Part shown: one piece after another, positions 1 to 524 of the stretch
How positions within the stretch are numbered: the stretch's first letter is position 1
Layout: each line of letters opens with the position of its first letter
IMG/VR virus record: IMGVR_UViG_2778261689_000002
DNA from: a virus
Taxonomy: Duplodnaviria > Heunggongvirae > Uroviricota > Caudoviricetes
Strand: one strand, 5' to 3'
DNA: 6,595 bases
Notes under the pieces: generated by a model
Told to the model about the DNA's origin: nothing
The model's input: only the letters and a program-made list of their open reading frames with translations
Database searches by the model: none
Made by a program: the position numbers and the translations under genes

Positions 1-524
1 GGGTCATAGTTGGCAAAGTACCAGGCATCTTTTCGCGTCACCCACATGCTGTACTGCACCTGGGCCATGTAAGCCGATTTTATTGCCTCGAAACCACCGA
101 GCCGGAATTTCATGAAATCCCGGGAGGTAAACGGGCATTTCAGTTCAAGGCCGTTGCCGTCACTGCATAAACCATCGGGAGAGCAGGCGGTGCGCATACT
201 TTCGTCGCGATAGATGATCGGGGATTCAGTAATATTCACGCCGGAAGTGAATTCAAACAGGGTTCTGGCGTCGTTCTCGTACTGTTTTCCCCAGGCCAGC
301 GCCTTAGCATTAACTTCCGGAGCCACACCGGTGCAAACCTCAGCCAGCAGGGTGTGGAAGTAGGACATTTTCATGTCAGGCCACTTCTTTCCTGAGCGGG
401 GCTTTGCTATCACGTTGTGAACTTCTGAAGCGGTGATGACGCCGAGCCGTAATTTGTGCCATGCATCATCCCCCTGTTCGACAGCTCTCACGTCGATCCC
501 GGTACAGCAGGTAGCGCAGATCAT
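1..524 (-). pseudogene. exoD: Lambda-type 5'-3' exonuclease (Red-alpha / YqaJ family) remnant. The native N-terminus is deleted and the frame runs off the left edge of the window.
   Basis: Hand translation of the minus strand is open from 524 down to position 3. From about 512 leftward it reads [56 protein letters not shown]...[47 protein letters not shown], which I recognise as lambda Exo from about residue 10 onward. The first ~12 codons (MICATCCTG...) are not Exo-like. Not in the ORF track because it is cut by the window edge. Confidence 0.8.

Follow-up and report, generated by a model that had tools for sequence, protein, structure and literature searches.

Why do the lambda exonuclease gene exo and the replication gene P lie head to head in this DNA, and what set the point at which they were joined? 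The DNA in question, hereafter the window, is the whole stretch of 6,595 nucleotides analysed here (IMG/VR record IMGVR_UViG_2778261689_000002). Judged by gene order and sequence identity, it is a stretch of DLP12, the defective, lambda-like cryptic prophage of Escherichia coli. Its annotated genes follow one another in the DLP12 order, exo-P-ren-emrE-ylcJ-ybcK-ybcL-ybcM-ylcH-ybcN-ninE-ybcO, and it is 100% identical to K-12 MG1655 over positions 1-129, 796-1194 and 1193-6518, that is, wherever K-12 has sequence. Integration at argU next to intD was seen in genomes carrying an identical joint and lies outside the window itself. An apparently complete DLP12-like prophage at argU of strain 1428 (NZ_CP023366.1), here called L009, served as the main reference. 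The features on which the argument turns are listed below.

1..524, minus strand: chimeric exo frame, running off the start of the window, with ATG at 524 (Pfam YqaJ match and lambda alignment)
501..505: GGTAC, the crossover of the deletion, with TA at 503-504 (alignments against lambda and L009)
433..1107, plus strand: chimeric P frame, with GTG at 433 and ATG at 436; 433-500 is antisense of exo, 501-1107 is P
128..129: TA bounding the nested K-12 deletion on the left, towards exoD (MG1655 comparison)
796..797: TA bounding the nested K-12 deletion on the right, towards peaD (MG1655 comparison)
1104..1406, plus strand: ren homologue, following P in what was the rightward early operon; homology to lambda stops at 1379
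2061-3587: ybcK, a large serine recombinase gene 1.5 kb downstream of the joint

The exo/P joint

Window 1-505 and lambda 31499-32003 (minus-strand exo) align without a gap and are 97.0% identical. For window 501-1379 the lambda counterpart is 39677-40555 (P and ren), at 93-94% identity, and from 501 to 6518 the P arm is 100% identical to L009. Beyond its own arm each register drops to chance identity (22/96 and 20/100 positions), and in three-line alignments against lambda and against L009 the bases that fit both registers are GGTAC alone, at 501-505. This short repeat is present at both parental sites, and one copy has been kept with no inserted bases, leaving a head-to-head joint that sits 25 nt into exo and 95 nt into P. 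A reading made from the sequence alone had proposed a deletion scar between minus-strand exo and plus-strand P, and the alignments agree with it, as exo homology ends at 505, P homology starts at 501 and the arms abut with no unrelated DNA between them. The overlap of about 15 bp at 497..512 given in that reading shrinks to the 5 bp at 501-505. On these alignments the joint is the scar of an illegitimate deletion in a DLP12-family prophage at argU.

The deletion amounts to 7,678 bp in lambda coordinates and to 5,227 bp relative to L009, the closest intact relative. In terms of L009, the lost interval comprised 25 nt of exo, bet, gam, a kil-like gene, a hypothetical gene, an S24-peptidase repressor gene, a cro-like gene, a YdaT-domain gene at the cII position, an O-like initiator gene and 95 nt of P. 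Loss of the immunity region, of both early promoters and of O with the origin, as claimed in the sequence-only reading, was found against both lambda and L009. The list of lost genes given there is lambda's own and differs from that of the closest intact relative, whose 5,227-bp interval holds no rex genes. Without repressor, promoters, O and origin the prophage is neither inducible nor able to replicate, and with the early promoters deleted, exo and P are left without promoters. Taken alone, the scar shows how one well-known cryptic prophage was disarmed.

Chimeric reading frames

Both chimeric frames proposed at the joint are present in the open reading frame list and its translations, and both retain significant similarity to their lambda counterparts, in nucleotide identity (97.0% and 93-94%) as well as in Pfam matches. 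In the exo frame, the first six codons are antisense of P and the seventh is a hybrid (MICATC-C), with Exo homology from about position 503 downwards; the first nine native codons are thus replaced by seven, six foreign and one hybrid, fewer than the roughly 12 foreign codons first supposed. The native lambda Exo N-terminus, which we take to be MTPDIILQR, is consistent with our lambda alignment. This N-terminus and pL are both lost, and the YqaJ match (E=2e-29) spans model positions 2-149 of 150. In an identical genome PGAP annotates the chimera as an intact CDS, 'lambda exonuclease family protein' (WP_072657034.1).

The P frame opens with about 22.7 foreign codons, in line with the earlier figure of about 22, and its P homology starts at about codon 32 of lambda P, the first 95 nt of the gene being gone. 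Residues 29-189 match Phage_lambda_P (E=2e-61) over model positions 1-162 of 162, the whole domain. P is left without its partner O, the origin and pR, and PGAP annotates the P remnant as a pseudogene without N-terminus. Of the two ATG start codons proposed, the one at 524 is as described, while position 433 reads GTG, with an ATG at 436. Neither a sigma-70-like promoter nor an intrinsic terminator was found in window 1-1500. The sequence hardly suggests expression of either chimeric frame, despite PGAP's call of an intact exo.

Relation to the exoD/peaD region of K-12

The sequence-only reading made no link to DLP12, yet a derived form of this scar is already known, as it is annotated in K-12: in MG1655, exoD (b0539, 264 bp) and peaD (b4508, 312 bp) lie head to head, with IS3 in renD. 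K-12 keeps window 1-129 and everything from 796 onward at 100% identity, the two parts overlapping by 2 bp, TA; missing from it are 668 bp, window 130-797 within the 2-bp ambiguity of the TA overlap, and with them the window joint. Between argU and the exo remnant, int included, a strain that has the window joint matches K-12 at 99.94% identity; the two also have another joint in common, xis/orf60a. From these comparisons, the simplest reading is that K-12 carries the window allele with a second, nested deletion of 668 bp and with IS3, although both alleles may have arisen independently from an ancestor with the xis/orf60a joint alone. In a set of 5,426 complete genomes, 9, chiefly of poultry, duck and pork origin, carry the window joint, as against 306 with the K-12 joint and 325 with the xis/orf60a joint.

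The DLP12 prophage of K-12 thus resembles the window in being the same prophage at the same argU site, with the same head-to-head order of exo and P and the same xis/orf60a joint. It differs in that the exo of the window, begun by a new start codon, is almost complete, and that the window keeps the whole Pfam domain of P. The window scar is a rarer, less-deleted allele of a known defective prophage, ordinary taken alone, and it is the allele from which the K-12 exoD and peaD pseudogenes can be derived.

Recurrent joints at TA in the prophage family

Deletion joints were gathered by split queries of genomes and by one metagenome scan, all from one prophage family. Twenty joints were counted, for which both parents could be read from L009 or lambda as proxies for the true ancestors; a 21st, with an unknown right parent, was left out. 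Joints with a common endpoint may be successive events, so that the 20 joints represent fewer than 20 independent ones. In 17/20 joints the crossover lies at TA, usually in the context GGTA(A/C), and in nine TA is all that the two parents share. The remaining three comprise one with a hot spot on one side only and zero overlap, and two ordinary joints with GGCTG and TTC.

Both endpoints of the window joint belong to this set. In L009 coordinates, exo 8778 was used twice, in the window joint and in the exo/O joint of an icd-site prophage (16 genomes), and P 14003 three times, in the window joint, in bet/P (7 genomes) and in orf60a/P of a prophage with another integrase. The hottest site, orf60a 8098, was used eight times, as left or right partner, and O 13672, P 14526 and gam 9702 were used twice each. 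In simulated random joints of the region, TA falls within the overlap with p=0.0048; for the 18 joints taken into this comparison, 15 with TA overlap correspond to p ~1e-32, and 0.07 coincident endpoint pairs would be expected by chance. GGTA is found at 10/17 endpoint sites as against 34/373 TA sites of the region (p=4e-7), and the enrichment is limited to the four bases adjoining TA in both half-sites, approximately G-(G/T)-T-A-(A/C)-C. Within the DLP12-type family, and by these statistics, the network of TA hot spots is solid; the TA/GGTA bias may also be a general property of E. coli deletions. The literature that we searched on DLP12 exoD, ybcK and TA-junction deletions contained nothing on such a pattern.

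The sequence-only reading spoke of a single deletion. Both endpoints also occur in other joints, however: the P end is that of bet/P and the exo end is that of exo/O, which makes a two-step origin as plausible as one step. In a strain with the bet/P joint, the exo arm is 100% identical to that of the window, whose P arm is that of the intact prophage; homologous recombination has thus reshuffled the arms and blurred the order in which the deletions occurred.

Several details of individual joints may be recorded here. At two joints (L014 ~2812-2822 and L015 ~3517-3519) the base 3' of TA fits neither parental proxy, being A in one (proxies C and G) and T in the other (both proxies C), which could stem from faulty repair at the joint or from an unseen polymorphism. 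In the late region of K-12 DLP12 (L017 5662-5663), an aaaD/tfaD joint, in which a 5' fragment of the terminase large-subunit gene is fused to a tail-fibre assembly gene, crosses at TAT, with lambda tfa as the proxy for the right parent. The hot spot P 14526 corresponds to window 1018-1033 and reads GGGCGGTAGACCT, which differs only by TA for C from what we take to be the lambda cohesive-end sequence, GGGCGGCGACCT. The hottest site (L009 8092-8112, lambda ~31316-31336, outside the window) reads GCGCC-TA-CCCGGATATT.

Mechanism of the deletions

Break points reused to the base, together with crossovers at TA, point to a directed cutting process, as far as sequence comparison can tell. We consider it likely that the window joint is a DLP12 deletion scar made by directed cutting and rejoining at the TA of hot-spot endpoints. 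An enzyme would cut at the TA of both partner sites, by 2-nt staggered cleavage with religation or by strand transfer, and rejoin the ends. One TA would stay behind, and the hybrid site would remain usable for more deletions, which would account for the sharing of endpoints among joints as well as for the nesting of the K-12 allele. The window joint may have formed in this manner in one step or by way of a bet/P or exo/O intermediate. Since both of its endpoints are recurrent and 17/20 joints cross at TA, the break points were probably not set by a chance repeat; as a counterpoint, a repeat of 5 bp would suffice for ordinary slippage or end joining.

Among the agents that can be named, insertion, adjacent deletion and excision of an IS element is the strongest rival, with plain microhomology next, and none fits fully. 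An IS3-family element could have inserted at a hot spot, caused adjacent deletions to either side and later excised without trace, with or without an IS-excision enhancer. One fixed endpoint with a varying partner on both sides is the mark of IS-adjacent deletion, the prophages often carry IS3, IS2 and IS1, and the 8-9-mers GGTACAGC and GTAATGGCT occur both at two IS3 targets and at the hot spots P 14003 and gam 9702. IS3 together with the excision enhancer IEE gave trace-free deletions in experiment (Kanai, Tsuru, Furusawa 2022; PMC8860574), and these resemble the present joints in an endpoint homology of at most 6 bp and in having one end fixed while the other varies (PMC8860574). They differ in that the DLP12-family joints are without any IS and IS3 duplications are not TA-specific. 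An IS or its remnant was found at 0/20 joints, where the arms abut directly. The direct repeats of six of seven IS3 copies are GAT, GTC, ATC/ACC, TAG/TAA, AAC and GTA, and the seventh has none; a target choice that is not TA-specific would hardly produce the TA seen at nearly every joint, and clean excision would have been needed afterwards in every lineage. We regard this route as unlikely. Quite improbable, in our view, is an ordinary microhomology deletion in one step, by slippage or RecA-independent end joining on the GGTAC of exo and P. The joining at GGTAC advanced in the sequence-only reading holds insofar as the overlap is real, and GGCTG and TTC at two family joints are non-TA repeats. 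Lambda nin5 likewise fits a 10-bp direct repeat, which we found at 2,806-bp spacing using what we take to be the nin5 coordinates; as at the window joint, one copy of a sequence common to both parental sites stays in such short-repeat deletions. In the DLP12 family, by contrast, joints often share just TA, and endpoints recur with varied partners. Endpoints of a microhomology deletion should fall by chance, yet both window endpoints are reused with other partners, each matching to the base the endpoint of another joint, so that a chance short repeat becomes unlikely with endpoints and TA recurring in many joints. A TA crossover in 17/20 joints stands against p=0.005 per joint by chance, and in the 9/20 joints that share exactly TA, 2 bp of overlap is not enough for slippage.

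Another candidate is YbcK, a large serine recombinase: it could have joined pseudo-sites with a central TA, deleting the DNA between them and leaving hybrid sites that stay substrates. Serine recombinases characteristically cross over at 2 bp which both partners must have in common, and TA in 17/20 joints has this form; hybrid versions of their sites also remain active. The Resolvase, Recombinase and Zn-ribbon domains of YbcK are complete, the catalytic-serine motif is present, ybcK lies in cis in most prophages with TA joints, and it is a conserved phage gene with a 60%-identical homologue in the nin region of an Atlantibacter prophage. However, the joints lack a detectable long recognition sequence, as no extended or dyad-symmetric motif reaches beyond about 4 bp per half-site (-4 to -1 only), and a TA core is palindromic and would allow inversions too. 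Moreover, TA joints occur in two prophages without ybcK (L026 and L020, the latter with bet/P), where action in trans is possible, and the boundaries of the ybcK cassette show no clear TA sites. We give this enzyme little credence as the agent, and still less a topoisomerase, whether topoisomerase I cleaving between T and A and resealing onto a heterologous end or a quinolone-poisoned gyrase or Topo IV cleaving at G/GTAC with a 4-nt stagger and subunit exchange. E. coli topoisomerase I cleaves in vivo at a TA dinucleotide 4 nt downstream of C (PMC9352719), the G directly before TA fits the preference of quinolones for scission before G (PMC6379681), and many of the carrier strains are of poultry, pig or clinical origin. 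Nevertheless, neither strand of the hottest site has a C at -4, the two window sites have it on opposite strands, and the topoisomerase I motif is AT-rich, as against GC-rich flanks here. Among the gyrase cleavage sites listed, none falls at the K-12 positions, with an uncertain mapping of W3110 coordinates. To our knowledge, gyrase has no TA preference or requirement.

A number of further candidates were considered and set aside. Acting as pseudo-ends, IS1 or IS3 ends would place the cut outside GGTA, yet the joints retain GGTA. Splice-like GT...AG boundaries fit the window joint and fail at the bet/P and P/P joints. The 47-bp att core of the DLP12 integrase contains no GGTA, and the same joints occur in prophages with three different integrases. 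RusA cuts 5' of CC, and TA/CC fits one strand of many sites, but RusA resolves junctions and makes no deletions. The 10-bp minimal nicking site of Gabija GajA, studied with the Bacillus enzyme, is CCCGGATATT (PMC8136825), and exactly this half-site is found at the hottest site; the nick published for the enzyme, however, falls 3 nt from TA. For Rpn nucleases, sequence specificity is not reported.

Beyond directed cutting at the window joint, we tentatively entertain a wider view, in which the decay of DLP12-family and related lambdoid prophages is largely driven by an undescribed TA-directed break-rejoin activity, with the window and K-12 joints as successive products. Such an activity would prefer G-(G/T)-T-A-(A/C)-C and reuse a few hot spots, above all the one in orf60a; it might be a recombinase, a nuclease or a transposase acting on pseudo-sites, and is possibly phage-encoded. 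If few TA sites are indeed reused, the 'domestication' of prophages would be not merely random decay and selection, but would carry a mechanistic bias. That bias, if true, would be genetically testable, and deletion endpoints could be used as a footprint of the activity in other genomes.

Further features of the prophage family

Three IS3 copies have imperfect or missing duplications: ATC/ACC in K-12 renD (L002 4775-4777/6036-6038), TAG/TAA in strain EC931 (L010 9339-9341/10600-10602) and none at K-12 IS3D (L031 3246-4503). These suggest point changes or recombination between IS3 copies. The 60%-identical YbcK homologue lies at L024 4956-6530 in Atlantibacter sp. RC6, between a C5 DNA methylase gene and DUF1367/NinG/Q. 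The YbcK-type recombinase is thus a conserved nin-region gene, and not the phage integrase. A scan of species-representative genomes found relatives at only 4 loci.

Within the window, emrE-ylcJ-ybcK (1380-3628) forms a low-GC cassette, with 35% GC as against 53% in the flanks. It is missing from lambda and phage SfI, and present in intact phages, among them PhiR70_1 and 4A7; beyond window 3628, other prophages have a P22AR-domain gene where ybcL-ybcM stand here. As a TA-flanked mobile cassette it is at best a candidate: its left boundary lies at GGTATAT, but its right boundary is diffuse.

The window ends within an IS element. Positions 6519-6595 are the terminal 77 bases of IS2 (TGGATTTGCCCCTATATTTCC...), inserted in ybcO just upstream of rusA, and in all 9 complete genomes with the window joint IS2 is absent from this position. 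IS insertions upstream of rusA (alleles rus-1 and rus-2) switch on an otherwise silent Holliday-junction resolvase.
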